Positions 18,491 through 52,487 of a stretch of 64,000 bases of DNA are shown here, one piece after another. This DNA is from a virus. Its lineage: Duplodnaviria; Caudoviricetes. The position numbers were made by a program, and so were the translations under genes. The stretch's first letter is position 1, and each line of letters begins with the position of its first letter. The stretch spans positions 1,522 to 65,521 of IMG/VR virus record IMGVR_UViG_3300034520_000094. One strand, 5' to 3'. Under the pieces are notes generated by a model. It was not told the origin of the DNA. It searched no databases and saw only the letters and a list, made by a program, of their open reading frames with translations.

Positions 18491-18747
18491 ATCTTGTAGT
18501 TGAGAATGGAAAGGTACTGAGCACAAAGGAGTTGTTTGGCAAGATGTGCGAAGTAAGTCCTACGTTACGTAATAGAATAAAAGCAGAAGATGTAGACGCC
18601 TTTGTTACTGGCAGGATAGACTGTGCAATATGCAGGTGTAATGGTTACGGAGTGTTTAAGTTGTTTCCTGCTGACGCAGAAATTGTCCAAGAAGGCGGGA
18701 AGAGATACATGCAATGTATGATTTGCGGAAAGTATTCGCATCTGTAG
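18487..18747 (+). CDS. Small Zn-ribbon protein
   Basis: CAIC...CMICG; ATGA overlap. Confidence 0.6.
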   Translation: MNLVVENGKVLSTKELFGKMCEVSPTLRNRIKAEDVDAFVTGRIDCAICRCNGYGVFKLFPADAEIVQEGGKRYMQCMICGKYSHL

Positions 18748-18764
18748 AAATGGAGGATTGCAAT

Positions 18765-19130
18765 ATGGAGTTTGAGAAGGCACATGACGTTGACTTAGCT
18801 GATATGAGTTTTGACAAGTATCAGAAGCTAGCTAGTAGAACAGTAAACACCAATTTAAGCACAGATAGCATGATAGCTAACTTTGCTTTGGGACTAGTTT
18901 CAGAAGGCGGCGAGGTTGGGGACATTGTTAAGAAGCAGTTGTTTCATGGCCATGCAGAAGATAAGGATAGTATACGAGACGAGCTTGGAGATGTACTGTG
19001 GTATGTGGCGAACTTAGCTAGAGCGTATGGTATCTCGATGGAAGAGGTGGCCCGAAGGAACGTTGAGAAGCTGAAGAGACGATTTCCCGACGGGTTTTCT
19101 GTTGATAGGTCAGTTAACAGAATAGAGTAA
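18765..19130 (+). CDS. mazG: MazG-like nucleotide pyrophosphohydrolase
   Basis: LGLVSEGGEVGDIVKK...DELGDVLWY...NVEKLKRRFP. Confidence 0.9.
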   Translation: MEFEKAHDVDLADMSFDKYQKLASRTVNTNLSTDSMIANFALGLVSEGGEVGDIVKKQLFHGHAEDKDSIRDELGDVLWYVANLARAYGISMEEVARRNVEKLKRRFPDGFSVDRSVNRIE

Positions 19131-34527: not shown

Positions 34528-34560
34528 GCAGTGCATGTGGGAACATGTGCACTGCTTTCT
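34528..34560 (+). terminator. Stem-loop upstream of sigma gene
   Basis: AGCAGTGCAT/GTGCACTGCT + TTCT. Confidence 0.5.
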
Positions 34561-34594
34561 ACGTATAGACTTTGCAGAAAGGGTGGAGCTGTGG

Positions 34595-35185
34595 TTGGAT
34601 TCGTCAGTCTTTGAGAAAGCTAAAAAAGGAGACAGCACTAGCATTGAATTGCTAGTCAAGAAATACTACAGATTAGCTTACAGCGCAGCCTATGTTTGGG
34701 TTAGAAAAGGTGTGATATCGAAAGAAGATGGGTTGAGTGAAGCTCGTTTTGCTTTAATGAAGTGTATTCGTAGGAGTTTCGATAGCAGCAAAGGTGATTT
34801 TGCACCGTATCTGGTAACGGCTGTAGATAATCAGATTAGAATGTATCTTCGCAAAGAAAGACGAGAGAAAATGATTGAGTATGCAGACAGGTATATAGAA
34901 ACAGAAGATAGAGAAATAGATATTATGGATTCGCTTACGGATGATGGGTATACGATTGAAGAGGTAGTTGAGCAGAAAATGCTTGTAAATATGATTATGC
35001 AGATTTTAGAAGAGAATCCATGCATTAAGGAAAAGGAAGCGAAGTGTTTGACATTGAGGATGAATGGATTGACCTATGACGAGATTGCAGCCGAATTGGG
35101 CATGTCGCAAAGTTATGCTAGTCGGCTATCGAATAATGCTATAGAAAAAGTTAAGCAAATTTTACGAGAATCAGGAGGGCTTTGA
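34595..35185 (+). CDS. RNA polymerase sigma factor, SigE/SigK-like (start uncertain; track gives 34535)
   Basis: FDSSKG.FAPYL...NQIRMYLRK region 2; TYDEIAAELGMSQSYASRL region 4. Confidence 0.85.
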   Translation: MDSSVFEKAKKGDSTSIELLVKKYYRLAYSAAYVWVRKGVISKEDGLSEARFALMKCIRRSFDSSKGDFAPYLVTAVDNQIRMYLRKERREKMIEYADRYIETEDREIDIMDSLTDDGYTIEEVVEQKMLVNMIMQILEENPCIKEKEAKCLTLRMNGLTYDEIAAELGMSQSYASRLSNNAIEKVKQILRESGGL

Positions 35186-37322: not shown

Positions 37323-37625
37323 ATGTACGAAAAAAGCAATAAAGCAGTGGAGTTGAAGGTTTCTGGTAAGACGCATCCGAATAAGCTTGGATGGGCTATT
37401 GCCAAGTATCTGAAAGACGTACCGATGGTGTATTTGACGGCAATGGGAGAAGCCTCGGTAAACGCAGCAGTGAAAAGTATCATAGTTGCTCAGTCGTTTG
37501 CAGCATATGAATCGAATGAAATTGTGATAAAGATTGGGTTTGATACTAGGTTTGACCAAGACTTGGCCAAGGAGGTTACGATTATTGTATTTTATTTGAC
37601 GTTACAGAAAAGACAGGGGGTATAA
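37323..37625 (+). CDS. spoVS: Stage V sporulation protein S homologue
   Basis: LKVSGKTHPNKLGWAIA...AMGEASVNAAVKSIIVAQSF parallels SpoVS LKVS...GAGA.NQAVKA. Confidence 0.85.
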   Translation: MYEKSNKAVELKVSGKTHPNKLGWAIAKYLKDVPMVYLTAMGEASVNAAVKSIIVAQSFAAYESNEIVIKIGFDTRFDQDLAKEVTIIVFYLTLQKRQGV

Positions 37626-37628
37626 GAT

Positions 37629-38309
37629 GTGATTGACAATATGTTTGAGAAAGTTCTTGTTATAGCTCCGCATAGCGACGACGACATTCTTGGTTGCGGA
37701 GGATTGATGAAGAAAGTAAAGAATTTAGGTGGGGAAGTTCACGTTATAGTTACTACGATAGGTGATGTGGCTTTTTATCATAAACCAGATGTAGTGAAGG
37801 CAGAGGTTCGGGAAGAAGAGTTTTATGCTGCTTTAGATTTTTTGGGTGTGGACAAAGGGGAGATTCTGTTCAGGCATTCGGAGCAGAGATTGCACTTGCT
37901 CCCGATTGTGGATATTATTACAGCTTATGACCAGAAGATTAGAACGTATAAACCGACAGCAGTGTTTATTCCGTACCCGTCGTTTCATCAAGACCATAAG
38001 ACGGTATTTGATGCTAGCTTTGCAGCGTTGCGGCCAACTCCGAATACTAGCTATGTTCGTTTGGTGGCAATGTATGAGTACCCGTTTGTGGTATGGGATG
38101 TTAAAGATACGGATGGGAATAGGTTTCATTTAGATATTAGCGATGTGATTGACGATAAGATAAATGCTATGAAATGTCATAAGTCGCAGATTCGAGAAGC
38201 AGAGCATTTGATTTCTCCGCAGACGATTCGTGTTTGGGCTGAACGACGAGGTATAGAAGTAGGCGTGCCTTATGCAGAGGCATTTAAGGCGTTACGAATG
38301 GTATTTTAG
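37629..38309 (+). CDS. PIG-L/LmbE family N-deacetylase
   Basis: APHSDDDILGCGG, REEE, HQDH, K...HKSQ, YAEAF. Confidence 0.9.
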   Translation: MIDNMFEKVLVIAPHSDDDILGCGGLMKKVKNLGGEVHVIVTTIGDVAFYHKPDVVKAEVREEEFYAALDFLGVDKGEILFRHSEQRLHLLPIVDIITAYDQKIRTYKPTAVFIPYPSFHQDHKTVFDASFAALRPTPNTSYVRLVAMYEYPFVVWDVKDTDGNRFHLDISDVIDDKINAMKCHKSQIREAEHLISPQTIRVWAERRGIEVGVPYAEAFKALRMVF

Positions 38310-38312
38310 TCC

Positions 38313-38341
38313 TTGATACAGATGGCAATATATGTTATAAT
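38313..38341 (+). promoter_or_regulatory. sigmaA promoter cassette copy
   Basis: TTGATA-cagatggcaatatatgt-TATAAT; spacer identical to 10024 copy. Confidence 0.8.
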
Positions 38342-38372
38342 AAAAGAAAAACCTAATTAATGAAAAGGAGAC

Positions 38373-39467
38373 GTGAATCAGATGGGTGAAGAGAAACAGT
38401 TGTCGCTTATGGATTTGTTAGCCGAACTTAGAGGAGAAGCAAGTGCAGAAGTGCAGAAAGAAGCGTGGTTGTACGAGCAAAGCAAGGCGTTTGTAAGAAA
38501 GAATAGAGCGGGGATAATGTCTGCCATGATAAAGGCATTGCGCATGCAAAAGACGAAGCATGCTTTGTTTTATGGAGCGTTGCTGTTAGAAGGCGGGCAA
38601 GACATTTTTTATGTTAGACGAAGGCTGTTGATTGATGCTTGTGAAGACGGTGTAGATACGAATGTAATTGAGTATATGGCAAAGTTGTATCAGAAGCCAC
38701 TTAAACAAACGTCTGAGTTAGATTTGTTGCTTGGGATAGTGATGATTTGTCAAGGGGCGAATTGGTGGAATTGTGAGTATGGCCAAAAGAAGACGTCGGT
38801 GTTTTTGACGTCAAAAAATGTTCCGACGCCTGAGTCTGATAGCATAGAAGAATTGATGAATGAGATGGAAAGGCTTTGCTTTGAGGGTGGATATGAGAAC
38901 GCAAGAAAGAGTAGTGCTGTTTTAAGACGTTTGAGGGAATTAAAGCAAGACCCGCATGATTATCATGAATGGTTGACAGATGCTTGTATCAGAAAAGGGA
39001 AGCAGATTGGCGATGAAGGATTGGTTCGGGCAGGAACGTATGCAAGTAAGGTGTTGAATAGAAGGACAGGATTTAAGGATGGGAATTGGCAGTTAGTGCT
39101 TCGTTGCATGCTATGTATGGGTAGTACGCCTGGGATTCCGTCGTATGAAGAAGCGACAGCTAATGCTCTGAAGCTGTATTCGCTTTGTAAGAAGTTCTTG
39201 TTAATTGCTAAAGAACGGTTAAAAGACCCAACTTCAATCGAATTGCCGTCTTGGGCGTATGATGGGATGCATGCTAGCAATAAGAAGTTGTACCCGATTC
39301 CAGATAGAAGATTTCCTGGAACGGAGCAAGGGTTTTATAATGGTTTGTTGCAGGCGAGAAAGTATGGGCGATTAGACCCGAGAGACCAGGCTGTATTGGA
39401 TAGTTGCAAAGTGCCAGACGAATATTTGCGGTTGTATAATGAATGGATAGACGATGTGGAAGCATAG
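38373..39467 (+). CDS. Protein with RarA/MgsA C-terminal-like domain, no ATPase
   Basis: MSAMIKALR...ALFYG..LLEGG..FYVRRRLLIDACED resembles RarA C-domain; WAYDGMH. Confidence 0.55.
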   Translation: MNQMGEEKQLSLMDLLAELRGEASAEVQKEAWLYEQSKAFVRKNRAGIMSAMIKALRMQKTKHALFYGALLLEGGQDIFYVRRRLLIDACEDGVDTNVIEYMAKLYQKPLKQTSELDLLLGIVMICQGANWWNCEYGQKKTSVFLTSKNVPTPESDSIEELMNEMERLCFEGGYENARKSSAVLRRLRELKQDPHDYHEWLTDACIRKGKQIGDEGLVRAGTYASKVLNRRTGFKDGNWQLVLRCMLCMGSTPGIPSYEEATANALKLYSLCKKFLLIAKERLKDPTSIELPSWAYDGMHASNKKLYPIPDRRFPGTEQGFYNGLLQARKYGRLDPRDQAVLDSCKVPDEYLRLYNEWIDDVEA

Positions 39468-39485
39468 AAAAGGAGGTTTTGTTCG

Positions 39486-40136
39486 TTGAATTACGATGCA
39501 GAAAAGATAGCTGATTTCTTCTCGAATGGTGAGAAGTGGCGGGATGCTCAGGACGAGATTACGCTCATGCATATGAACACACGAACGCAGACTGTTTTGA
39601 TGGGAATAATCATAGACGAGATAAGAAAGGTTATGAATAGAAAGTTCGGTGCTGTTCGGCTTATTGATGTTGGCTGTGGGACTGGCATGCTGCTGGATTA
39701 TCTTGACGAAGCAAAGCTATTGCACAGGGTGATTTCGTATATTGGGTATGACATAGTAGAAAAGTTTTTGGCTCTTGCTGTTGAGAGGGCCAAAAAGTAC
39801 AGAACGTTGATTACTTTGAGGAATGCTGATTTCTTTGCTGAAGAAGACGGAGACAAAGCCGATATTGTTATTGCTACGCAATGTTTGAATACGGTGTTTA
39901 CAGACGACCAGTATGGGTTTATAGCATTGGCAATAAGAAAATTGTGGGAAAGAGCAACAGATACTGTGATATTTGACGTAAAAGATGTAGAAGCTCCGTA
40001 TATCCATCCGAATCGTTTGTACTATGACCCAGAGCGTGTGTATAGCCTTTGCAGAGGAATAACGCAGAATGTTACGATTAAGCAAGCAACCAAAGCAAAT
40101 TTTACAGTTGTGCTTAGTAAAGAAGAATTGTTTTAG
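39486..40136 (+). CDS. Class I SAM-dependent methyltransferase
   Basis: LIDVGCGTG, YIGYDI, ADF, DIVIA. Confidence 0.88.
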   Translation: MNYDAEKIADFFSNGEKWRDAQDEITLMHMNTRTQTVLMGIIIDEIRKVMNRKFGAVRLIDVGCGTGMLLDYLDEAKLLHRVISYIGYDIVEKFLALAVERAKKYRTLITLRNADFFAEEDGDKADIVIATQCLNTVFTDDQYGFIALAIRKLWERATDTVIFDVKDVEAPYIHPNRLYYDPERVYSLCRGITQNVTIKQATKANFTVVLSKEELF

Positions 40137-40152
40137 AATAGAGGTGTAGCAA

Positions 40153-41406
40153 GTGAAGGTTTTGCTGATTGGAGCAGATGGGCGAGTGTACTCAATGGCA
40201 AAGAACATGGCCGAGCATGGCCATGTCCTCGCTGTTGTTGGAGGGCGGGAATATATGTCTGGTTTTTTCGACACGATGATTGATGCACCGCCTGACGACG
40301 AGAAAGTGATTTTTAGCTTAGTAGACGAGTTTAAGCCTGACTTGATTGTTCCTGTTAGTTATGAGACAGGTTATGCTGGAATTGTGAATAAGCTGAGAGA
40401 CAAAGGCTATCGTGTTTTTGGTGCGTCCAAGCAAGGAGTTTTGTTAGAAGCAAGTAAGATTGTTGGATTGTCCGTTGCTGTAATGAATAGAGTACCTGTT
40501 GCGCCGTTTGTAGTTGTGCATGACAAAGAACAGGTGCTGGAAGCGTTGCAAGAGGACAAAAGAAACAGAGTTGTGAAACGAATTGGTTTTGCTGGAGGAC
40601 GAGGAGTAAGAGTTTTAGACACAGAAGAAGAGGTGTTGGAGCAAGCCTTGGCTGTTATAGAGCAAGACGGTGTTGCAATGATTCAGAGAGAGATACGTGG
40701 GATTCCTGTTAACGTTGTCTGGATTCAGACTCCGAGCGGACCTGTGCAGCTATGCTTGCAGACAGACTATAAGAAGACGTATAGTGGAGACCTTGGTCCG
40801 TTTTGTGGAGCAATGGGAGCAGCTGTTTGGAACCATGTTCCGACGGGTGTGCTAAAAACCATAATTGCTCCAATGAATGATTATTTGATTAGTATTGGCT
40901 ATTTTGGCAGAGTAGGCTTGGATTGTATGTATGAGTATGAATCAGGAAAGCTGTATGCTATAGAGTGGACAGCACGGTTTGGTGTACCGACAACCGAGAC
41001 TATGCTTGCTACGTGGGATGATGATTTTGCGGAATTGTTTGTAAGTTGGCTAGATGGGTCTAGAAATCAGCCTAAGCTTAAAGGAAAAGTTGGCATTGGT
41101 GTTGCGATTGCTGGTGGTGGGTACCCATATCCAAATGCAGTGAAGCAAGGGTTGCCTGTTACAGTCAAAGGAGAATTAGATAATGTTATTCCGATGGGAG
41201 TATATGGTAAGTTAGGCGAGCTAAAGACGATGGGTGGCAGGCACTTTGTTGCTGTTGGACACGGGAATACAGTAGCAGAGGCAAGGAGCAATGCTTATGA
41301 AGCTGTAAAGAAAGTTAGCTTTACGGATATGTTCTATAGAACAGATATTGGAGAAGATATGTTGCAAAATAGTGTTTTTGATGAAATAGAATTGGGGTGG
41401 AAGTGA
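40153..41406 (+). CDS. PurD (GAR synthetase)-like ATP-grasp ligase, divergent
   Basis: MKVLLIG, LEASK, GGRGV, DLGP..GAMG, IEW.ARFG, GGYP, TMGGR, FYRTDIG cover full PurD length. Confidence 0.85.
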   Translation: MKVLLIGADGRVYSMAKNMAEHGHVLAVVGGREYMSGFFDTMIDAPPDDEKVIFSLVDEFKPDLIVPVSYETGYAGIVNKLRDKGYRVFGASKQGVLLEASKIVGLSVAVMNRVPVAPFVVVHDKEQVLEALQEDKRNRVVKRIGFAGGRGVRVLDTEEEVLEQALAVIEQDGVAMIQREIRGIPVNVVWIQTPSGPVQLCLQTDYKKTYSGDLGPFCGAMGAAVWNHVPTGVLKTIIAPMNDYLISIGYFGRVGLDCMYEYESGKLYAIEWTARFGVPTTETMLATWDDDFAELFVSWLDGSRNQPKLKGKVGIGVAIAGGGYPYPNAVKQGLPVTVKGELDNVIPMGVYGKLGELKTMGGRHFVAVGHGNTVAEARSNAYEAVKKVSFTDMFYRTDIGEDMLQNSVFDEIELGWK

Positions 41407-42107
41407 TGGGAAAGACAGTTTGTGTGTATCAGCCAGGGTACTTTCAGCCTTTGCATTATTTTGCACGGATTTATGAATCAGATGTTTTTGCTAGTTTAGC
41501 TGGTGCACAGTTAGTGCGTCGGAATGGCCAGCACAGGGCAAAGTTATATGATTATGATTTGACGGTGCCTGTTAGTGGCGGGCATAGGCAGTCTTTGGAA
41601 AAGGCGATTCCTTGCTATGACCAGAGGTGGGTTGACAAGCATTTGACTTCGCTAAGATACATGTATGGAAAGGCTCTGTTTTACAAAGATACGATTGCAA
41701 TAGTAGAGATGCTGCTACGACATGCTGAGCAGGAGCATTGGTCATTGGCCAAGATTGGATTAGAGACTGTACGAATAGTTATGGACTTGGCTGGGTGGCG
41801 TGGAGATATCTTGGAAGTGCACGAAAAGCCAGCTGGTCTAGATGCTTCGGATTGGATGTTGCACATTGTATTGGAGTGCGGAGGAGATACGTACATTTGC
41901 GGGCAGCCAGCTTTCAACAACTATTTGCGTGCTGCTGACTTTGAGAAGAAAGGAATAAAAGTTAAAGTACAGGATTGGATATGCCCAGTGTATAAGCAAA
42001 AGTCTGCCAATTTTAAGGCGAATCTTTCAGTCTTAGATGCATTGATGTTTTGTGATGTAGAAGAGTTTTTGCAGGTACTGAAAGGAGTATGTAGATGCGA
42101 ATCTTGA
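41406..42107 (+). CDS. WbqC-like family protein
   Basis: YQPGYF...YFARI..SDVF, LTVPV, KH...Y.KA.F, Y.Q...F..NLSVLDAL. Confidence 0.85.
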   Translation: MGKTVCVYQPGYFQPLHYFARIYESDVFASLAGAQLVRRNGQHRAKLYDYDLTVPVSGGHRQSLEKAIPCYDQRWVDKHLTSLRYMYGKALFYKDTIAIVEMLLRHAEQEHWSLAKIGLETVRIVMDLAGWRGDILEVHEKPAGLDASDWMLHIVLECGGDTYICGQPAFNNYLRAADFEKKGIKVKVQDWICPVYKQKSANFKANLSVLDALMFCDVEEFLQVLKGVCRCES

Positions 42108-43543
42108 TTGTGCCCCAGATAGGTTTGAGGAATATTCATGCTGATAGCCGCTATTTGGCCTCGTTGGATTTGGCTGAGCATTTGATAAAGCACGGACATT
42201 TTTGTTACATGTGGGTGCCTGAATACGCTCAAGACCAAGTAGACCGTATGCAGGGTTTGATGTATGTATATAAAGATTACGGATATGATTTTTATACGGA
42301 AATGGGAATGGTGAACCTGCAAGATTTAGCAGATTTGTTTTCTCGCACTTGCGGCAAGTATTATGTAGATGCTATTGTTACAGACATTGGTGCACAAGTT
42401 CCGATTTATCAGTTAGCTTTGTCTGACATTATCCATAAGTCAGATATGCCATGCATGATAATTTATCCTGCTGTATATGAATTGCAGGAGAACAGAGATT
42501 ACACAAGAATGTTTTTTGCGCTGCAAGCTCTTGGCAATGCGTATTCAGTTCCTGTCTTTATTGCTCCGCATCAGAAGAGTGTGTCGCTAAGAAATGCCAG
42601 AAAGTTTTTAGCTCCAACAGAAGTTAAGAAGATAGATAAGAATGCTTTGATGGTGTCTGTTGGCGTTCCATGCGAACGTGTAGACCGAATTAAGCAGAGC
42701 TTAGGTGGCAAGAAGTTTGACAAGTTTACTTTGTTTTTTGGCGCAAGGTTAAACCATGTTAAGCAGCCAGAATTGATATTTGATTTGTACGCAAAGTTTA
42801 TTGCTTCTGGAAAAAATGCACAGATAAAGATTACGACGAATACGTCTTCTTTGAAGTTCTTTACGTATACAGCGGGCAAAGAAGCTTATGAAAAAGTTAA
42901 GGATGTAGTAGACATTACGTTTGAGTGCCCGAGAGATACGTATCTGGAGATTGCATTGCAAAGTCATGTCGCTATTTGCTGGTCTACGTCTGAAGGGTTT
43001 CCGACAGGTTTTTGGGAACAGATGTATATGGGCTTGCCTGTTTTGTTCCACAAAGAAGAATGGGCTGTGTCTCAGTTGCCTGACTGGTACCCGTGGGTAT
43101 TCAGTACCAAGCAAGAAGCGTTTGGGATGTTGACGTATATCTACGAAAATTATGCCCAGGTAGCCAAGGACATGGAAAGGATGCAGGAGTTTATTAGAGA
43201 GCATTATAGTGCTAGAACTACGTATGATGTGATGGAAGATAGTTTGATAAAGCTAGACGAGAAAATGAACATTGGCTATAAGCGATTCAGTGGTGTTAGT
43301 AAGATGATTGAGCAAGCAAAAGAATTGCTTGAGCCTGGACAGATTGTTACAGTGCCACGAATGTTAAGCATATTGAATCAGATAGGACGTAGTTTTCCTG
43401 TAAAGAATAAAGATAGAATAGGAAATGCTAATATGCCGAAAGACTATGAAGTATACAGAATGCTGTTGGCAGCTGGATTTAAGGACACGTTCAAGACGCC
43501 GTCTCCGCAGTTGATTGTACCTGAAAGGAGCGAAAAGAAGTGA
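42095..43543 (+). CDS. GT-B glycosyltransferase (GT4-like) 1
   Basis: FGARLNHVKQPE; SEGFPTGFWE (EX7E) + GLPV. Confidence 0.8.
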   Translation: MRILIVPQIGLRNIHADSRYLASLDLAEHLIKHGHFCYMWVPEYAQDQVDRMQGLMYVYKDYGYDFYTEMGMVNLQDLADLFSRTCGKYYVDAIVTDIGAQVPIYQLALSDIIHKSDMPCMIIYPAVYELQENRDYTRMFFALQALGNAYSVPVFIAPHQKSVSLRNARKFLAPTEVKKIDKNALMVSVGVPCERVDRIKQSLGGKKFDKFTLFFGARLNHVKQPELIFDLYAKFIASGKNAQIKITTNTSSLKFFTYTAGKEAYEKVKDVVDITFECPRDTYLEIALQSHVAICWSTSEGFPTGFWEQMYMGLPVLFHKEEWAVSQLPDWYPWVFSTKQEAFGMLTYIYENYAQVAKDMERMQEFIREHYSARTTYDVMEDSLIKLDEKMNIGYKRFSGVSKMIEQAKELLEPGQIVTVPRMLSILNQIGRSFPVKNKDRIGNANMPKDYEVYRMLLAAGFKDTFKTPSPQLIVPERSEKK

Positions 43544-44370
43544 GGATATTAGTTACGGGTGGCAGCGGGTTTATTGGTACGCATTTAGTTAAAGCTTTGA
43601 AGGGAAAAGGATATTTTGTTATTGTTGTCGATAAGAAAGCTGAAAAGCCGATAGACATCCTGAATGAAGATAGTTTAGATTCTGCTTTCTCGCAGTTTCG
43701 ACCAGATGCAGTTGTTCATCTAGCAGCTGCTAAGCGTGGAGACCAAGATGCGATTTATAGAAACAATGTGGGTGGAACGCTGAATGTAGTGGGTGCTTGC
43801 AAGAGATTCGGAGTGAAACGACTTTTGTTTGCGTCCACGTCTGCTGTGTATGGCCATGACCAACAAGTTGAATGGGCAGATTGCAGGCCAACGTCTGCTT
43901 ATGGTAGAAGCAAGCTGATTGGAGAGCATTTAGTTGTTGCTGGTGGAACGCCAAGTATTGTGTTTCGACTGTTTAATGTGTATGGAACTGGCGGGGAGAG
44001 CGTAGTGAACGTATTGGATTCATGTTTAAGAACTGGCGATGTGTTTACGGTGTTTAACAGAGGGATTATGAAGCGTGATTTTATCCCAGTAGAGATGGTT
44101 GTTTCGGCTATGCTGTACGGACTGGAGCATGATGCAGCTGATTTGCTAGGAACAGTAAACGTTGGAACTGGTTGTGGCTTTAGTGTTCAAGAATTAGTAG
44201 ATTTGGCCAGAACTTGTGGTAGTCTTGCTTATGTTGTGGAAGAGAAGTCTAAGCGAGTGGACACGTATCATAGTGTAGCTGACATCAGCAAAGGGTCTTT
44301 GTTCCTGGATTTGAAGCGGTCAAGGAAGCAGCTAGAAGAAAACTTGCTAAAGTTTTGGAGGCGGCCATGA
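43540..44370 (+). CDS. NAD-dependent NDP-sugar epimerase/dehydratase
   Basis: TGGSGFIG, HLAA, STSAVYG, YGRSK, RLFNVYG, RDFI. Confidence 0.93.
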   Translation: MRILVTGGSGFIGTHLVKALKGKGYFVIVVDKKAEKPIDILNEDSLDSAFSQFRPDAVVHLAAAKRGDQDAIYRNNVGGTLNVVGACKRFGVKRLLFASTSAVYGHDQQVEWADCRPTSAYGRSKLIGEHLVVAGGTPSIVFRLFNVYGTGGESVVNVLDSCLRTGDVFTVFNRGIMKRDFIPVEMVVSAMLYGLEHDAADLLGTVNVGTGCGFSVQELVDLARTCGSLAYVVEEKSKRVDTYHSVADISKGSLFLDLKRSRKQLEENLLKFWRRP

Positions 44371-45809
44371 GAATAGTAGTGAATCCGACTTATTGGACAG
44401 GTAATGTTATGGGTCATAGTATCAGTTTGAGTGCGATTAACACCGCAAAAGCTTTGTCTGCCTTGCCGAATGTCCATGTAATTTTGCCTGTTCCGAAGGA
44501 TAGGACTTTGTGGGTGTACGATGATTCTGACCTGGACGGAATTGACGAAGTCATTGAAGTTGAGTACATGGATAAGATTATGACGCATTTTGCCACAGAG
44601 GATTGGTGGCGGCATTTTAATGTCGGTAGCGGTGATGTGTTCTACGATGTTATGTTGGAGTTTAATGCTAAGATGGCATTGCAGATGGAGAACTGGGCGT
44701 TGGTTGGTAATTATCAGACAAAGTTCTTTTTGCCTGCTCCGATGACTGTAACTACTGTTATTCGTCCAGCGTTTTTGATTTATGAATTGAGGCGAAGGCC
44801 ACATGCTCATGTTCTTGAAACGCTTGCTCAAGCTACGCTGTCGACCATGTTTTTGACTGAGCACCAGAAAATGCTAGCTGAAGAAGCGGCACGACAGTAT
44901 TTAGCTCCAGCAAAGCTTCGTGGATTAGACGAACGGACAACGGTGATTCCGCATAGTATAGATGTAACACGTATTCAGTATAAGCAACGGCATAAACCAG
45001 ATAAAGTTCGGTTGATGTTTGCAACTACGCTGTCTGACGTAAAGAACGGAGACCGAATAGGGATTATGTATGATAAGCTGTTGAGATTAGGTAAGCCTGT
45101 AGAGTTTGTAGTGTCGCTTCCGTTTAGACGTGCGGCGACAGCTGACAGATATGCACAGGATGTTGTTGGCGAGTTGCGGGAAAAAGCGTATAAGACATTC
45201 GGAAAGAACATTGAATTGCATGTGAATCCACCGAGAGAGGAATATGAGCGTTTGTTGGAAGGGGCAGATGCGTTTGTTTGTATGTCTAGAAATGAGTCTT
45301 TTGGATTATCGTTTTTTGAACAGTTGCAGGCAGGCCAAGTTGGTATCTACTTGAAAGAGCCATGGCAGAAAGGGCTGTTGCCAGAGGAGTACCCGTTTGT
45401 TTGTGATACTGAAGAAGAAGTGTTTGCACGTCTGCTTTGGGTTGTAGATAACCTGGAAGAAGCACAAGCAAGGGTTGCTTTTATGAAGGACTGGCTAGCA
45501 CAGAATCTAAGTCAGGTTGTAGTTGCGAACAAGATGGAACAGTTTATGAGAAAGCAGTTTAACGTTAGCTTGGAAGCAGACCGAGAAGTAATGTCAAAGC
45601 AGTGGCTGTATAAGTGTTTAGAAGATACGCTAAAGAGAGACACGTATTCGCTTGAAGATGTGGCACGTGTTATCAAGGAAGAAAAGAGAACGAATATTTT
45701 TGCAGCTAGTACAGCATACGCTCATACTGTACGCAGAATGATGCAGTTGTTGGGATTTGAGGACACATTGAATAAGACTGGACTGCCAGTGTTTAAGAGA
45801 AAGGGGTAA
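44367..45809 (+). CDS. GT-B glycosyltransferase (GT4-like) 2
   Basis: VIPHSID, LSDVKN, ADAFVCMSRNESFGLSFFE (EX7E). Confidence 0.82.
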   Translation: MRIVVNPTYWTGNVMGHSISLSAINTAKALSALPNVHVILPVPKDRTLWVYDDSDLDGIDEVIEVEYMDKIMTHFATEDWWRHFNVGSGDVFYDVMLEFNAKMALQMENWALVGNYQTKFFLPAPMTVTTVIRPAFLIYELRRRPHAHVLETLAQATLSTMFLTEHQKMLAEEAARQYLAPAKLRGLDERTTVIPHSIDVTRIQYKQRHKPDKVRLMFATTLSDVKNGDRIGIMYDKLLRLGKPVEFVVSLPFRRAATADRYAQDVVGELREKAYKTFGKNIELHVNPPREEYERLLEGADAFVCMSRNESFGLSFFEQLQAGQVGIYLKEPWQKGLLPEEYPFVCDTEEEVFARLLWVVDNLEEAQARVAFMKDWLAQNLSQVVVANKMEQFMRKQFNVSLEADREVMSKQWLYKCLEDTLKRDTYSLEDVARVIKEEKRTNIFAASTAYAHTVRRMMQLLGFEDTLNKTGLPVFKRKG

Positions 45810-45815
45810 AAAGAA

Positions 45816-46598
45816 ATGGACGAAAAACGAAGAGAAGTGGTGTATCTGGACATAGAGAAGGTAAAGCCGAATGACTGGAATCCGAATGTCCAGACTGAGT
45901 CAGTGTTCAATGCTTTGGCAGAGAACATTCAGGAAATAGGTATGACTGAACCAATTATGGTCAAGCCTGAGGAAGATGGAACGTATCTGCTTGTGTCAGG
46001 GTATCACAGATGGGAAGCATGTAAGACGTTGGGGTACAAAGAAATCCCTGCCTATGTAATGGACGAGTTTGATGAAGATGCGGCTAAGTTCCAGACAGTT
46101 CGTATGAATATGCTGAAAGGAAAGATAGACCCTGTCAAGTTCACGAAGCTGTTTGATGAAATGGCCGATAAGTATGGCAAAGACTTGACGAAGCAGATGA
46201 TGGCATTGGTAGACGAGAAAGCATTTCAGAACTTGTATGTGAATGTTAAGAAAGAGTTGCCGAAAGAGCTGCGGGATAAGATGGATAAGGCAAGAGGAGA
46301 TATGAAAACGGTTGATGACCTCAGCAGAATTTTGAATGAGATGTTCAGTAAGTACGGAGACACGCTCAAGAATAACTTTATGATATTTCAGTATGGTGGG
46401 AAAACGCATCTGTGGGTTATGATGAACGAGAAGCTAAAGAAAAAGCTGATTGACCAAGTAGTTGAGGAGATTAAAAGCGGCAATTTTGATATGTCTGAGT
46501 ATTTTTTGAAGCTGATTATGGAGCATAGTGATGATGTACTGAGTGAGCTAGAGCCGATAGGTACTGAAGAAAATTTGTTTGAGGAAGATGCTCAATGA
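45816..46598 (+). CDS. ParB/Srx-like N-terminal domain protein
   Basis: PNDWNPN...NIQEIGMTEPIMV...LVSGYHRWEA. Confidence 0.85.
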   Translation: MDEKRREVVYLDIEKVKPNDWNPNVQTESVFNALAENIQEIGMTEPIMVKPEEDGTYLLVSGYHRWEACKTLGYKEIPAYVMDEFDEDAAKFQTVRMNMLKGKIDPVKFTKLFDEMADKYGKDLTKQMMALVDEKAFQNLYVNVKKELPKELRDKMDKARGDMKTVDDLSRILNEMFSKYGDTLKNNFMIFQYGGKTHLWVMMNEKLKKKLIDQVVEEIKSGNFDMSEYFLKLIMEHSDDVLSELEPIGTEENLFEEDAQ

Positions 46599-46599
46599 A

Positions 46600-46860
46600 G
46601 AAAGCATATGCTTCAAATGCCTATTTTTAGAGCTTTTAGATGATTGTCTAAAATGGCTTCTAACGAATTTTTAGCGGGTGCCTAATATAATCCTACCTCT
46701 TTAGAAATTCAAAGGCCTTAAAACGAATCCTACAAGCAAGTTTTTTAGACCTCTTGTAGGATTCTTTGCTACTAGCCAATGATATAACTTATAAGTTATA
46801 TTTCAGCTAAAAATGGCATTAATGTAGGCATATTTTGCAATACAAAAGACAAATTTTAGA
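46600..46860. other. AT-rich non-coding region with nested inverted repeats
   Basis: 12-bp IR GAATCCTACAAG/CTTGTAGGATTC, 20-bp palindrome ATATAACTTATAAGTTATAT, further IRs. Confidence 0.6.
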
Positions 46861-46870
46861 TAATCCGCTC

Positions 46871-46899
46871 TTGACACAGAATTTACTATATGATATAAT
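46871..46899 (+). promoter_or_regulatory. sigmaA promoter (last copy)
   Basis: TTGACA-cagaatttactatatga-TATAAT. Confidence 0.85.
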
Positions 46900-46936
46900 A
46901 AAAGAAAAAACTATAACTAGAAAAAGGAGTGATTAG

Positions 46937-47242
46937 ATGGAGCAAGTGGCGAAAGATGATAAGGGAAAGCCAGAGTTAACTCGAGTGCCCAGGCAGATAA
47001 TTTGGGATATTGCTCGGGTTCGTGCATATGGCTATGAAAAGTATGGAACAGGAGCGGACAGATGGGACACGGTTGAGATACACAGGTATCAGAATGCAGC
47101 ATACAGGCATTGGTTAGCATACCTTGACGACCCAGATAGTGTGGATAGCGAAAGCGGATTACCGCATTTAGCACACCTTGCTTGTAACATTGCATTCCTG
47201 TGTGAATTGGAGAAGAGGAGGAAAGAACATGAGAGTAATTAA
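46937..47242 (+). CDS. dATP/dGTP diphosphohydrolase-like (DUF5664)
   Basis: KDDKGKP...YG..KYG...W...RY..AAYRH...DSESGLPHLAH.ACN. Confidence 0.8.
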   Translation: MEQVAKDDKGKPELTRVPRQIIWDIARVRAYGYEKYGTGADRWDTVEIHRYQNAAYRHWLAYLDDPDSVDSESGLPHLAHLACNIAFLCELEKRRKEHESN

Positions 47243-47849
47243 GCCAAGTGTAGAGATTTTAGATGAATTAGACGGGCAAGAGATTTTGAAAAGATTAGAG
47301 TTTGTTAGTAGATGCTGTTATAAAGATGCAAGTCATGCAGAAGAGGAACATACCGCTGAACGGCTTATTGCTTCGCTTATCAGAAGAGGCCACGAATTTG
47401 TATTGGAACATGTGAGTGTGTCTGCACGATTCATAGTTGACAGAGGTGTAAGCCATGATATTGTACGGTATCGTATTGCAAGCTATGCACAAGAAAGCAC
47501 TAGATATTGTACTTATGCAGAAAATGATTTTAGTACAGAGATAACGGTTATTAAGCCAGTAACGCTAGAAGAAGGAACAAAAGGATATAAGCATTGGCTG
47601 AAAGCTTGCCAGAAAGCAGAAGAAGAGTATTTTTATTTGCTGGATTATGGTTTGTCAGCACAAGAAGCAAGGGTAGTATTGCCGCACAGTATAAAGACTG
47701 ATATAGTTGTAACCATGAATTTGAGGGAGTGGCGACATTTTTTGAGATTGGCAGCAGCTCCGAGTGCACATCCGCAAATGCGGGAAGTTACACTTCAGTT
47801 ATTGAATACGTTTAAGGAGAAGATACCAGTAGTATTTGAAGATATTTGA
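47229..47849 (+). CDS. thyX: Flavin-dependent thymidylate synthase
   Basis: GHE.VLEH, VRYRIASYAQESTRY, ARVVLP, NLREWRHF, AHPQMR. Confidence 0.9.
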   Translation: MRVIKPSVEILDELDGQEILKRLEFVSRCCYKDASHAEEEHTAERLIASLIRRGHEFVLEHVSVSARFIVDRGVSHDIVRYRIASYAQESTRYCTYAENDFSTEITVIKPVTLEEGTKGYKHWLKACQKAEEEYFYLLDYGLSAQEARVVLPHSIKTDIVVTMNLREWRHFLRLAAAPSAHPQMREVTLQLLNTFKEKIPVVFEDI

Positions 47850-49859: not shown

Positions 49860-52487
49860 ATGTCTGGCATGTTACAGGACCAGAGGATAATAGAAAAACT
49901 GGATGAACTGACTAAAGGATTCACGAAAGATGATATTGCATTGCTGATGCAGGTGCTGAAGAACAATGAGGGGAATGAAATAGAGATACTGCAAGACTTG
50001 ATGGGATATACGTATCGTTGGCCGCCAGTAGGAACTAGGGAGTTTATTGAAAGCCCGCAGTATCTTGGATTAGAAGGCCAAGTGTTCCCGAGGTTGTTGG
50101 ACGACCTTGAGGAATTGTTCGAGGGAGATTATGTCGAAGCAGTTTTGACAGGTGCCATAGGATGGGGCAAGTGCCAAGATGGATTTTCCAAGGTGCCCAC
50201 AAGTACGGGCGTAAAACGATTGAAGGATATCGAGGTAGGAGACCTTGTTATGTCTGTGGCCCCAAACGGGTCTTATAAGCTTGCAAGGGTTGCGGCGTTG
50301 TCTACGACCAGGAAGAACTGTAATAAATATACGTTCAGCAGAGGGTTGCAGTTGAAATGCTCTGTGGACCATCCTGTATTGACCCAGCGTGGATGGGTTA
50401 GCATAGGAGAGGTTACGAAGGAGGATTTTGTTGCGTCAAGCAAGCATGTAGTGGGCTGCCAAGACTTTGATGAAGACCTTGCAAAGTGGTTTGCATGCAT
50501 GGCTGCTGAGTTGCCTGTCTCGAACGGAAACAATGATATAGTTCCTGTAGGATATGAAGAGTTGAAGCAATTATGCTCATTGGTAGGAGGACTACCGAAA
50601 GAGGTATGGAATACGATTCAAGTTACGAAAGGACAGTACCTCGGCAGGAAGTGTGCACAGAAGATATTTGACCTGTATGCCGATGTATTGCCAGACCAGT
50701 GGAAGCTTTGGCTAAACCCGAACATAAGTTGGGAGCGGCTGGAATCTGTAGAGAGTTTAGGCGAAATGGATTTGTATGATATTGATGTGCCAGAGACACG
50801 GAATTTTATCGCAAACGGAATGATAGTGCATAACAGCACTTTTGCCGAGATAGCGATGTGCCGAATGTTGTATGAGATAAGTTGCTTGAGAGACCCGCAG
50901 AGGGTATATGGTTTGATGCAGGGTTCGGTTATTGTTTTGCTGAATGTAGGAATTACGCTGGATAATGCAAAGAAGATTGTGTTCCAAGGTGTAAAGAATA
51001 AGCTGCATGCAAGTCCGTATTTTGTTGAGAAGTTTCCGTATGGAGCCTGGCAGTCAGAGCTTAGGTTTCCGAACAATATCTGGGTGTTTCCAGCCGTGGC
51101 AGGTTCGAGCGGTGTTATAGGCTACAATGTATTCGGCGGGGTTATGGATGAAGTGAACTTTATGTCTGTGGTTGAGAACAGCAAAGCGAAGGGAGCTAGC
51201 AATGGCCGATATGACCAAGCTGATACTTTGCATAAGTCATTGATTAGGCGTATGAAATCCCGCTTTATGAAGAAGGGTAAGCTGCCAGGCATTTTGCTTC
51301 AGATTTCGTCAAGCCGATATCCAGAGGATTTTACTGAACGGAGATTGAAAGATGCGGAAGAAGACCCTACGATATTTACGAGGAGATATGCTCAGTGGGA
51401 CACGTTGCCTGCTGACCGTTGGAGCGGAAAGAAGTTTTGGGTAGCATTGGGAGATGGAATAGAACCGCCAAGAATCTTGAAAGACGACGAGGAAAAACGC
51501 CAAGTTGAGGAAAAGAAGTTGCCGATGATAGAGGTTCCGATAGAGTTCTATAGGGATTTTGATAAAGACATTGATGCGGCGATTCGGGATTTTGCAGGAA
51601 GGCCGACGTTGACTATCCGTCCGTTTATCCGATACAGAAATAAAGTAGTTGAAGCTCTGGCCAAAGGTGCAGAGATTGGACTGGAACATCCGTATTCAAA
51701 GACAGAGACTACGCTGCAAGATGGAGGGATATTTTTAGTAGATAAGCTAAGGATTCCGCATATCAAGAAACAGCTTGAAACAGCTGTTGAGCCAGAGAAG
51801 AGAAAGCTGGAAGAGGAACTAAGATTTTTGAAAAGTAAGCCTAGATTTGTGCATGTTGACTTGTCTTATGCAAGTGATAGCACAGGATTGGCTATGGGTT
51901 ATGTGCAAGGGTATAAGGAAGTAATCAGACGAAATGAAGCTGGAGAGCAGTTCTCAGCTAAAATGCCAATTATTGTTATTGAATTTATGATACGAATTAG
52001 GCCGCCGAAGGGTGGAGAAATTCAGTTTGCTGATGTGCGGTCTTTGATTTATGAATTGAAGTCATATGGCTATCCGATTAGGAAAGTTACGTTTGACTCG
52101 TTCCAGTCCAAAGACAGCATGCAGCAGTTCCAGCAGAAGGGGATAGAGTCTGGTCATGTTTCGGCCGATACGAATCCAGCTGTGTATAATGCGTATAGAG
52201 ATGCTTTGTATGAGGACAGGTTGATTACGTATCAATATGACATTCTGCTGGAAGAGACAATACGGTTAGAGAAGAATGAAAAGAAGAATAAGGTTGACCA
52301 TCCGGCCAACGGGTCAAAAGACGTAGCGGATGCTGTTGCTGGTGTTTGTTATGACTGTGTAACAGAAGGAATGATAGCACCTGCTCCACCGCCATCGTTG
52401 GGAGAGATGGAAGGAGGAGAGATAAAGATACAGATGGAAAGGTCGGCCGACGATGCTGACCTGTTCGGATATGGAGCTATTATGTAG
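49860..52487 (+). CDS. terL: Terminase large subunit with intein
   Basis: GAIGWGK|ST Walker A, GVMDE Walker B, HVDLS, VTFDSFQS, KVDHPANGSKDVADA. Confidence 0.92.
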   Translation: MSGMLQDQRIIEKLDELTKGFTKDDIALLMQVLKNNEGNEIEILQDLMGYTYRWPPVGTREFIESPQYLGLEGQVFPRLLDDLEELFEGDYVEAVLTGAIGWGKCQDGFSKVPTSTGVKRLKDIEVGDLVMSVAPNGSYKLARVAALSTTRKNCNKYTFSRGLQLKCSVDHPVLTQRGWVSIGEVTKEDFVASSKHVVGCQDFDEDLAKWFACMAAELPVSNGNNDIVPVGYEELKQLCSLVGGLPKEVWNTIQVTKGQYLGRKCAQKIFDLYADVLPDQWKLWLNPNISWERLESVESLGEMDLYDIDVPETRNFIANGMIVHNSTFAEIAMCRMLYEISCLRDPQRVYGLMQGSVIVLLNVGITLDNAKKIVFQGVKNKLHASPYFVEKFPYGAWQSELRFPNNIWVFPAVAGSSGVIGYNVFGGVMDEVNFMSVVENSKAKGASNGRYDQADTLHKSLIRRMKSRFMKKGKLPGILLQISSSRYPEDFTERRLKDAEEDPTIFTRRYAQWDTLPADRWSGKKFWVALGDGIEPPRILKDDEEKRQVEEKKLPMIEVPIEFYRDFDKDIDAAIRDFAGRPTLTIRPFIRYRNKVVEALAKGAEIGLEHPYSKTETTLQDGGIFLVDKLRIPHIKKQLETAVEPEKRKLEEELRFLKSKPRFVHVDLSYASDSTGLAMGYVQGYKEVIRRNEAGEQFSAKMPIIVIEFMIRIRPPKGGEIQFADVRSLIYELKSYGYPIRKVTFDSFQSKDSMQQFQQKGIESGHVSADTNPAVYNAYRDALYEDRLITYQYDILLEETIRLEKNEKKNKVDHPANGSKDVADAVAGVCYDCVTEGMIAPAPPPSLGEMEGGEIKIQMERSADDADLFGYGAIM
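50172..50834 (+). mobile_element. Mini-intein (221 aa) in TerL Walker A
   Basis: Starts CQDG after GK, CSVDHPVLT block B, ends IVHN|S. Confidence 0.9.

Follow-up and report, generated by a model that had tools for sequence, protein, structure and literature searches.

A phage gene cassette predicted to build an aminoacylated amino sugar, in a variable slot before ParB and terminase

A nine-gene cassette in a phage genome

We analysed a 64,000-nucleotide stretch of DNA (the window) from the IMG/VR virus record IMGVR_UViG_3300034520_000094, and in it a cassette of predicted sugar-transfer and sugar-tailoring genes at 37629-46598. The window is nearly the whole of a 65,521-bp phage genome (CheckV completeness 92%), with a GC skew of +0.31 and all long open reading frames (ORFs) on the + strand. 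No near-identical DNA was found among 50,697 phage records. The cassette comprises nine ORFs on the + strand that are tightly packed or overlapping, with overlaps of 10, 13, 4 and 16 nt between neighbours and gaps of 6-63 nt. A first-pass annotation, made from the sequence alone, had described a close, partly overlapping run of genes for a PIG-L deacetylase, a methyltransferase, a PurD-like enzyme, WbqC, two glycosyltransferases (GTs), an epimerase and a ParB-like protein. Pfam and PHROGs matches on the + strand confirmed all eight of these families where they had been placed, and the spacing was as described; the list was incomplete, as it omitted a ninth gene (38373-39467) that encodes a protein of 364 aa. 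One complete IMG/VR phage of 71,030 bp, G001, carries counterparts of all nine genes in unchanged order, at 45-78% identity. A gene-neighbourhood search thus found the set to be syntenic in a related phage, as had been anticipated, so the run is not a chance juxtaposition.

Glycosyltransferases and sugar-tailoring enzymes

The gene at 42095..43543 (+) encodes GT1, a GT4-type glycosyltransferase of the GT-B fold with a C-terminal extension, identified by Pfam, PHROG and an AlphaFold2 (AF2) model. Its Glycos_transf_1 match scores 30.4 bits against a cut-off of 26.4, and the model has a predicted local distance difference test (pLDDT) score of 85.2 and an extension of about 100 aa. The top Foldseek matches in the PDB are MshA, tll1591 and BshA (E-values of 5e-12 to 1e-10), and PglA, WaaG and PimA are also among the fold matches. 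MshA and BshA are GT4 enzymes that use uridine diphosphate N-acetylglucosamine (UDP-GlcNAc). GT1 has R218, K223, E300 and E308, an Arg, a Lys and two Glu (E-x7-E) that we take to be the GT4 catalytic set, with the Arg presumably serving in diphosphate binding. GT1 is probably the enzyme that commits the sugar to its acceptor.

The second glycosyltransferase, GT2 (44355..45809, +), scores 21.9 bits for Glycos_transf_1, below the cut-off of 26.4, and was recognised as a GT1 paralogue by PHROG 30253 (4.8e-19) and by alignment. It carries the same C-terminal extension and keeps both Glu and the Lys, with a Thr at the Arg column. Three of the 17 family members have Thr in this column (GT2, its G001 orthologue and a GT from locus L024); the other 14 have Arg. 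Across the family the C-terminal domain spans about 100 residues and ends in a G-[FYW]-x-D motif. No Pfam family was common to any two of the 17 extensions (E <= 10), and there was no usable Atlas match. In the GT1 model, the order of helices and strands in the extension would be compatible with a winged helix. A complex prediction for GT1 and ParB returned a score of 0.00 and gave no answer, speaking neither for nor against binding.

Upstream lies the gene for the PIG-L/LmbE-type de-N-acetylase (37629..38309, +; PF02585, 6.8e-18), which scores 65.8 bits against a Pfam cut-off of 28.2. In the PDB it is most closely related to diacetylchitobiose deacetylase, LmbE-related proteins and BshB1. The translation contains HSDD near the N-terminus and HQDH in the middle of the protein, which we take to be zinc-site-like His/Asp motifs. 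It is 42-44% identical to Paenibacillus PIG-L proteins that adjoin WbqC. The copy on one Paenibacillus chromosome (L118) accounts for the 44%; in the other phages compared, identity is 26-35%, and in G001 76%. This likeness hints at a Paenibacillus-like host or donor. The GalE-type epimerase of the short-chain dehydrogenase/reductase (SDR) superfamily (43540..44370, +; PF01370, 159 bits, 1.3e-46) would act on a nucleoside diphosphate (NDP)-linked hexose or N-acetylhexosamine (HexNAc). Its PDB neighbours are 4-epimerases for UDP-glucose (UDP-hexose), UDP-GlcNAc and UDP-glucuronic acid. The class-I S-adenosylmethionine (SAM)-dependent methyltransferase (39486..40136, +) matches Pfam Methyltransf_12/31/25/11/23 and has no PDB relatives at E <= 0.01.

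A remodelled PurD-like ligase

The ATP-grasp ligase encoded at 40153..41406 (+) has the domains of PurD, with GARS_N (32.3 bits), GARS_A (48.4 bits) and GARS_C (60 bits) all over their cut-offs, and it aligns over its full length to 11 PurD structures at about 25% identity. Its close relatives are only eight proteins (P0012-P0019) at 31-69% identity, after which true PurD follows at no more than 29%. Three loops, GGREHA, GPNTGGMGAYSP and E-F-N-x-R-F-G-D-P-E, are kept in all six canonical PurD sequences aligned and altered in all nine of the ligase clade. In each of the nine, GGREHA has become DGR(V/A/S)(Y/H)(S/A), the GPNTGGMGAYSP loop is replaced and five residues shorter, and the Asn of E-x-N is a Thr. 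The clade retains the ATP-grasp core, namely K142, E271, R275 and the GGR motif. Judged from these alignments, the ligase keeps the PurD fold with remodelled substrate loops. An ordinary phage purD was considered and rejected, since the 27 phage records found by tblastn are at most 27.6% identical and resemble cellular purD, and the loops of the clade are altered. There is also no purine-pathway context: the ORFs scanned include no purine gene and PF00709 (PurA/PurZ) gave no match, in a scan in which other pur families were not searched individually.

A related locus, L012, whose terminase is 71% identical to the one in the window, bears on the role of the ligase. Its methyltransferase is 47% identical to ours and the order methyltransferase, ATP-grasp, WbqC is the same. 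The two ATP-grasp proteins are non-orthologous (BLASTP E-value of 0.058). Because the order is kept despite this, the comparison points to a functional trio of methyltransferase, ATP-grasp enzyme and WbqC.

WbqC and its bacterial neighbourhoods

The ligase gene overlaps by 10 nt with the gene for the WbqC-family protein (41397..42107, +; PF08889, 6.7e-34). This protein scores 118.1 bits against a cut-off of 21.3 and its Atlas neighbours are all WbqC clusters, with no PHROG and no PDB relative. Only one phage record was found for it by tblastn. We assume, and have built nothing on it, that the acetimidoyl-making Cj1324/PtmG also belongs to PF08889.

A profile scan of bacterial genomes gave five WbqC loci: two in Paenibacillus, two in gammaproteobacterial metagenome-assembled genomes (MAGs) and one in a Saccharibacteria MAG. 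A PIG-L homologue is present at all five, adjacent in four and 4.2 kb away in the other. In Paenibacillus, two GT4 genes share the operon with WbqC and PIG-L. On the chromosome of Paenibacillus sp. EC2-1 (L118, 5341-12761), this operon reads GT4, two small genes, GT4, a 202-aa gene, WbqC, PIG-L and a 342-aa gene; the product of the last has no PDB relatives.

Eight unusually long WbqC proteins were picked from 2,429 matches for an architecture scan. Three are N-terminal fusions to a GNAT acetyltransferase, two are tandem WbqC proteins, one is WbqC alone and two carry an insert (fusions, duplications or inserts occur in P0209, P0197, P0223, P0242, P0278, P0134 and P0140). The insert scores as Seryl_tRNA_N, at 49 and 35 bits, and forms a coiled coil rich in Lys and Glu. 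A tRNA-binding role for WbqC was not retained, as this match may be compositional and the window contains no tRNA gene. A figure legend in the accessible part of PMC10404621 places ProRSx, GT4, WbqC and LmbE in one operon with a special tRNA (tRNA-ProX). Taken together, the bacterial pairing with PIG-L, this operon and the WbqC architectures would make GT4, deacetylase, WbqC and an amino-acid-activating enzyme a recurrent unit.

The MgsA_C-like protein

The gene omitted from the first-pass list (38373..39467, +) encodes an MgsA_C-like helical protein of 364 aa, assigned from a weak Pfam match to MgsA_C (21.1 bits, under the cut-off of 27) and from an all-helical AF2 model (pLDDT 85). In the model, residues 41-131 superpose on the C-terminal domain of Escherichia coli MgsA (3pvs) with Z 11.0 and a root-mean-square deviation of 1.9 Å over 91 residues, and Foldseek agrees. 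The protein is thus modelled as an MgsA/RarA C-terminal-like domain, possibly followed by one resembling a clamp-loader collar. For residues 156-253, the matches to RFC and delta subunits reach no more than Z 6-7.5, a level that counts as noise for helical folds, and we did not accept a clamp-loader collar as the second domain. The family is small, with only 10 members among 5.8 billion clusters. Its profile hidden Markov model (HMM) also matches cassette genes in L030, Vibrio phage PG28 and L012, so that MgsA_C-like proteins lie within five cassettes, namely those of these three, G001 and the phage studied here. Membership of the MgsA_C-like protein in another locus, L017, in the same family was not demonstrable (hhalign E-value of 0.18).

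A hypervariable slot before a ParB-TerS-TerL backbone

The last gene of the cassette (45816..46598, +) encodes a ParB/Srx-domain protein (PF02195, 5.8e-12; phrog_26387, 5e-66). Its ParB_N match scores 45.9 bits, and G62, H64 and R65 are invariant in 16 orthologues. No helix-turn-helix family matched; the only other match was a weak one to Arm-DNA-bind_2 (17.9 bits, below cut-off).

A tblastn search with GT1 found 12 phage records. In five cultured phages, a GT of about 480-520 aa is followed directly by a ParB-like gene, and then by a small gene and the gene for the large terminase (TerL). These are DLP3, PG28, TM16, Kitkat and JP1, which infect Stenotrophomonas, Vibrio, Rhizobium, Arthrobacter and Agrobacterium, respectively. 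The GT family with its extension spans phages of Gram-negative, actinobacterial and Firmicute-like hosts.

Scanning IMG/VR with the ParB alignment yielded 66 loci, of which 21 contain a full-length orthologue; we examined 27 related loci by tblastn. Full-length ParB orthologues at 28-78% identity precede the small and large terminase genes (TerS and TerL) in all 27, including those without a GT. The GT family is present in 18 of these loci, PIG-L in nine, WbqC in four and the PurD-like gene in only two, both from the close relative; two pairs among the 27 are duplicates, L005 with L013 (one contig) and L009 with L020 (one record). Five of the GT-negative loci hold less than 3 kb upstream of ParB, too little to judge, and in one of them, G010, the GT is split across the contig ends. 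The GT family is missing from G018 and G006, both complete genomes of this lineage. As ParB is present in all loci and the GT is absent from two complete genomes, these comparisons identify ParB-TerS-TerL as a backbone, with the sugar genes filling a variable slot before it. ParB as a dedicated partner of the GT is not supported (27 of 27 loci for ParB against 18 of 27 for the GT).

The slot is carried by a widespread siphophage lineage and its content differs from phage to phage. In DLP3 it holds PIG-L, an epimerase/dehydratase, an aminotransferase and a methyltransferase. The slot of L012 starts with an MgsA_C-like relative, a flavin amine-oxidase-like gene, DUF5662, a GT and the methyltransferase, and continues with the different ATP-grasp gene, WbqC, PIG-L and a second large GT-like gene. 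Elsewhere the slot pairs a DegT aminotransferase with a 4,6-dehydratase or a nucleotidyl transferase with a radical-SAM enzyme, or it contains several SDR enzymes. In L031, L025 and L024, the cassette or ParB is preceded by a classic AAA ATPase (480-545 aa) and then by one or two Pfam-negative proteins of about 320-360 aa, and small genes with ATPase domains are annotated nearby in DLP3 and TM16. Beyond routine annotation in the accessible part of the DLP3 paper (PMC7326821), we found no published description of the module in the literature.

Operon structure and flanking genes

A near-consensus promoter of the sigma-70/sigmaA type (38313..38341, +; 11 of 12 consensus positions) lies directly after PIG-L and reads TTGATA-17-TATAAT with an extended TG. 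The 330-nt non-coding stretch that follows ParB (46600-46930) ends in a perfect one (46871-46899; TTGACA-17-TATAAT with an extended TG), before the gene for a MazZ-like pyrophosphohydrolase. The consensus scan behind these calls gave 34 sites where shuffled sequences would be expected to give 35.7, so only matches that are close to perfect are notable. Because these two host-type promoters frame them, the genes at 38373-46598 look like one early operon, with PIG-L closing the preceding early operon.

The cassette was said to sit between recombination genes and genes for nucleotide metabolism and packaging, and the flanking ORFs bear this out. On the 5' side are RecA, DUF932, a sigma factor, a RecU-like gene and SpoVS; on the 3' side, after the non-coding stretch, are the MazZ-like gene, ThyX, an intein-bearing large terminase and a T4-type portal. 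The phage sigma factor (34535-35185) and the SpoVS homologue (37323-37625) lie directly upstream of the cassette, and SpoVS and the RecU-like gene are retained in L012 and G001. The MazZ-like protein (101 aa) has a dATP/dGTP diphosphohydrolase domain and its gene overlaps that of ThyX (46937-47849); a second MazG is encoded at 18714-19130. Inteins occur in the large terminase (49860-52487) and in a family-A DNA polymerase (23005-25758), the latter intein with a LAGLIDADG domain.

A predicted route to an aminoacylated amino sugar

From the enzyme families we can outline a possible pathway. Expression would be early, from a host-type promoter. The epimerase would supply UDP-HexNAc, and GT1, a complete GT4 enzyme, would transfer the HexNAc to an acceptor hydroxyl. 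PIG-L, identified by its profile, would strip the N-acetyl group, after which the PurD-like ligase and WbqC may together attach a small amino acid, for instance glycine, to the exposed amine, and the methyltransferase may cap the product. GT2, lacking the conserved Arg, might add a second sugar or serve as a non-catalytic partner. The cassette would in this way parallel the three opening steps of bacillithiol or mycothiol synthesis, performed on a target specified by the phage.

The first-pass annotation had proposed much the same chemistry. Bacterial operons of GT4, PIG-L and WbqC and the analogy to bacillithiol and mycothiol support it well, and by that analogy we consider it quite probable that HexNAc is transferred, deacetylated, aminoacylated and methylated. 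What stands of the proposal is this enzymatic logic, through the likeness of GT1 to MshA/BshA and of PIG-L to LmbE/BshB, the 4-epimerase, the PurD loops and the pairing of WbqC with PIG-L; the order of the steps, the amino acid and the role of the methyltransferase are conjectural. The presence of the same GT family in phages of unrelated hosts suggests an acceptor that is specified by the phage and independent of the host.

The acceptor of the sugar

We tentatively place the acceptor, with clearly less than even confidence, in the phage's own DNA, at sparse or special sites modified before packaging and without a genome-wide anti-restriction coat. Several features of the locus agree with this. 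The cassette always lies between recombination genes and ParB-TerS-TerL, the early genes and the cassette are under a near-consensus host-type promoter, and an MgsA_C-like, replication-associated fold is embedded in five cassettes. The tailoring genes vary among close relatives, as an arms-race trait would. Published systems offer further support. According to the accessible parts of PMC13229309, ParB (27%), GTs (31%) and terminases (19%) accompany clusters for phage DNA glycosylation, and in one such cluster the DNA dioxygenase is activated by a ParB on double-stranded DNA. Similarly, the available portion of a preprint (bioRxiv 2023.12.21.572611) describes pairs of phage GT and epimerase that attach HexNAc to 5-hydroxymethylcytosine (5hmC).

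DNA of Stenotrophomonas phage DLP3, which carries PIG-L, the GT and ParB, is reported as uncut by 15 restriction enzymes in the accessible text of PMC7326821. As 10 of these 15 enzymes have no site in the DLP3 genome, the resistance mostly reflects site absence, and its value as proof of DNA modification is weakened. The genome has 68 sites for SmaI, 18 for ClaI, seven for EcoRI, four for NdeI and one for XbaI. Because SmaI, ClaI, EcoRI and NdeI do have sites, some modification in DLP3 may exist. A NAR 2026 paper on 'DLP3' concerns an Acinetobacter phage of the same name and was set aside, as it is not the Stenotrophomonas relative.

Besides the sites missing from DLP3, several observations weigh against DNA as the acceptor. 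No enzyme that would hydroxylate a base was found: TET/JBP (5mYOX; PF12851) was absent from the genome itself and from sets of five and 18 related records, a ThyA homologue (PF00303) from the genome and five relatives, and TGT from the genome and wherever else it was searched for (0 of five records). Nor was a C5-methyltransferase found in the genome or in the 23 related records. This agrees with the first-pass annotation, which had recognised no hydroxymethylase, TET/JBP or PurZ: the 65.5-kb genome has no TET/JBP, ThyA homologue, TGT or PurA/PurZ. Absence by PF12851 is not absolute, since highly divergent 5mYOX proteins that escape this profile have been reported in the part of the literature available to us. 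ThyX is present here and absent from G001, which has the same cassette; ThyX or the MazZ-like gene as a base-modifying step was rejected on this ground and because tblastn found neither gene after the ParB of G001. No DNA-binding family was found in the GT extension of any of the 17 members, so that the extension was not accepted as a recognisable DNA-binding domain. ParB also occurs in relatives without a GT, and bacteria have GT4-WbqC-PIG-L operons outside any DNA context. As a backbone gene of GT-less relatives too, ParB is a weak sign here of a DNA-modification locus, which is what the first-pass annotation had taken it to be.

Restriction-site avoidance argues in the same direction. GATC is absent from the genome (0 observed against 223 expected), as is CGCG (0 against 49), and CCGG occurs three times against 89 expected; in G001, GATC is again absent (0 against 211). 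CTGCAG (0 against 21.5), TTTAAA (0 against 12.7) and CTTAAG are also absent, so that there are no PstI, DraI or AflII sites. As the avoided words include G/C-only and A/T-only sites, no single base can be fully shielded. In all seven GT-bearing genomes tested, 18-45% of the testable 6-bp palindromes have an observed-to-expected ratio (O/E) below 0.3, compared to 0-1% of non-palindromic 6-mers. The two relatives without the GT family avoid palindromes as strongly (29-33% at O/E < 0.3), so the cassette does not relieve restriction pressure. A genome-wide anti-restriction coat on the DNA is unlikely, because site avoidance is extreme with and without the GT. The first-pass annotation was right to leave the acceptor open between base, backbone and protein, and its idea of DNA hypermodification fares less well in a genome that has no base-hydroxylating enzyme and whose site avoidance opposes a global coat. 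A more specific form, in which an aminoacyl-(methyl)hexosamine is placed on the phage's own DNA without a 5-hydroxymethyl or 5-hydroxy pyrimidine, at sparse or special sites (packaging-related, or DNA ends) and with the help of the ParB-like and MgsA_C-like proteins, is unlikely. It would imply a new glycosylation chemistry, with WbqC transferring aminoacyl groups to deacetylated amino sugars.

Three other acceptors were weighed against DNA. A phage protein, part of the virion or associated with DNA, is the other leading candidate, somewhat less probable than DNA and likewise held with less than even confidence. Ser/Thr O-glycosylation, followed by deacetylation, aminoacylation and methylation, would give a variable surface glycan; Ser/Thr hydroxyls are available and no new chemistry would be required. 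A conserved phage protein would explain how one GT family serves phages of unrelated hosts, and it fits the strong restriction-site avoidance. The combination of GT1 with an Arg-less paralogue would resemble two-subunit GT4 protein O-GlcNAc transferases, and hypervariable tailoring is typical of surface glycans. In mycobacteriophages, glycosylation of the virion by phage GTs is an accepted finding, as the accessible part of PMC11256854 has it. However, the operon is early and lies among replication and recombination genes, with the virion genes elsewhere, and relatives without the GT share the same terminase/portal backbone. No Ser/Thr-rich repeat protein was found: the best 30-residue window, in a 281-aa late protein, has 40% Ser plus Thr. 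No Mycobacterium phage GT was among the 12 records related to GT1 (tblastn at 1e-5).

The closest solved relatives of GT1, MshA and BshA, use small acceptors, the three-step logic is exactly that of low-molecular-weight thiol pathways, and the GT4-WbqC-PIG-L triad occurs in bacterial operons without phage or DNA context. These points, and an early expression with which it is consistent, speak for a small-molecule product, an aminoacyl-(methyl)hexosaminide on a common metabolite that reprogrammes the host early or blunts its defences. We consider this improbable, as the conserved additional C-terminal domain of the GT suggests a macromolecular partner, the fixed place beside ParB-TerS-TerL across very distant phages would go unexplained, and sugar diversification from phage to phage is hard to square with a cofactor-like compound. 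Phage GTs that seroconvert their hosts are well known. A host envelope polymer (teichoic acid, lipopolysaccharide or capsule), decorated to block superinfection or change a receptor, could similarly be the target here: GT4 enzymes often use lipid-linked glycans, with PglA, WaaG and PimA among the fold matches of GT1, and the authors of the DLP3 study proposed seroconversion for their GT (in the accessible text of PMC7326821). We regard this as very improbable. The same GT family is found in phages whose hosts have unrelated envelopes, the nine ORFs include no membrane GT, flippase or initiating transferase, and a partial scan of the genome found no integrase or lysogeny module in the ORFs covered. 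Sparse or special sites in the phage's own DNA, our tentative choice, and a phage protein are the two leading readings.

Implications

Decoration of DNA or virions with sugars by phages affects resistance to defence systems, sequencing bias and the behaviour of phages in therapy. The module described here is widespread, in cultured phages of five host genera and many uncultured ones, and it lacks the enzyme needed by every known DNA-glycosylation route. The outcome would be either a new attachment of sugar to DNA or a general glycosylation of the phage's own proteins, and either would be new for the lineage. If the more specific DNA reading with new chemistry is true, the modification would have a role other than blanket anti-restriction. 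WbqC, a family without an assigned function, gains a testable role in acting on the amine freed by PIG-L, beside an amino-acid-activating enzyme. As cultured carriers exist, the question of the acceptor can be tested directly.

Comparison with known systems

The known phage systems closest in setting are the 5mYOX-ParB-GT clusters described in the accessible parts of PMC13229309 and bioRxiv 2023.12.21.572611. Like the cassette, they have a GT-B enzyme, a partner epimerase and a ParB-like gene near the terminase, and their GTs were recruited from cell-envelope or small-molecule GT families. Unlike them, the cassette lacks a TET/JBP-type dioxygenase, and as no 5mYOX was found here or in 23 relatives, there is no known DNA hydroxyl to glycosylate. 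PIG-L, WbqC and the PurD-like ligase are not described for those clusters in the accessible parts; in the available portion of the 2023 preprint, 'deacetylase' and 'ATP-grasp' have no occurrences. Pre-replicative glycosylation of the T-even type, as covered in the accessible text of PMC13326640, likewise places a phage sugar on the phage's own DNA and varies among related phages. It differs in that the cassette genome has no ThyA homologue, that ThyX is not conserved with the cassette and that sites are strongly avoided.

The ligase shares with PurD the architecture of N, A and C domains and the full-length similarity to 11 solved structures. It is set apart from PurD by its altered signature loops, by a genome without PurA/PurZ and by the translational coupling of its gene to WbqC.

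In their enzymes, the bacillithiol (BshA-BshB-BshC) and mycothiol (MshA-MshB-MshC) pathways are close parallels, with a GT4 GlcNAc transferase, a PIG-L/LmbE deacetylase and an ATP-dependent attachment of an amino acid. However, neither BshC nor MshC is among the Pfam matches of the nine ORFs, which have an ATP-grasp enzyme and WbqC instead. The phage adds a methyltransferase, an epimerase, a second GT and an MgsA_C-like protein, its GT has the C-terminal domain of about 100 aa, and the whole is set beside ParB and terminase. The acceptor of the cassette is probably a macromolecule, unlike those of bacillithiol and mycothiol synthesis.

Bacterial GT4-WbqC-LmbE operons, as in the Paenibacillus locus L118 and the accessible part of PMC10404621, also have these three families adjacent, with an amino-acid-activating function beside them. 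They are chromosomal and lack ParB, the terminase and the MgsA_C-like gene, and their GTs appear to be without the C-terminal extension of the phage family. The activating function itself differs as well: in the ProRSx operon it is a paralogue of an aminoacyl-tRNA synthetase together with a tRNA, and in the phage it is an ATP-grasp ligase.

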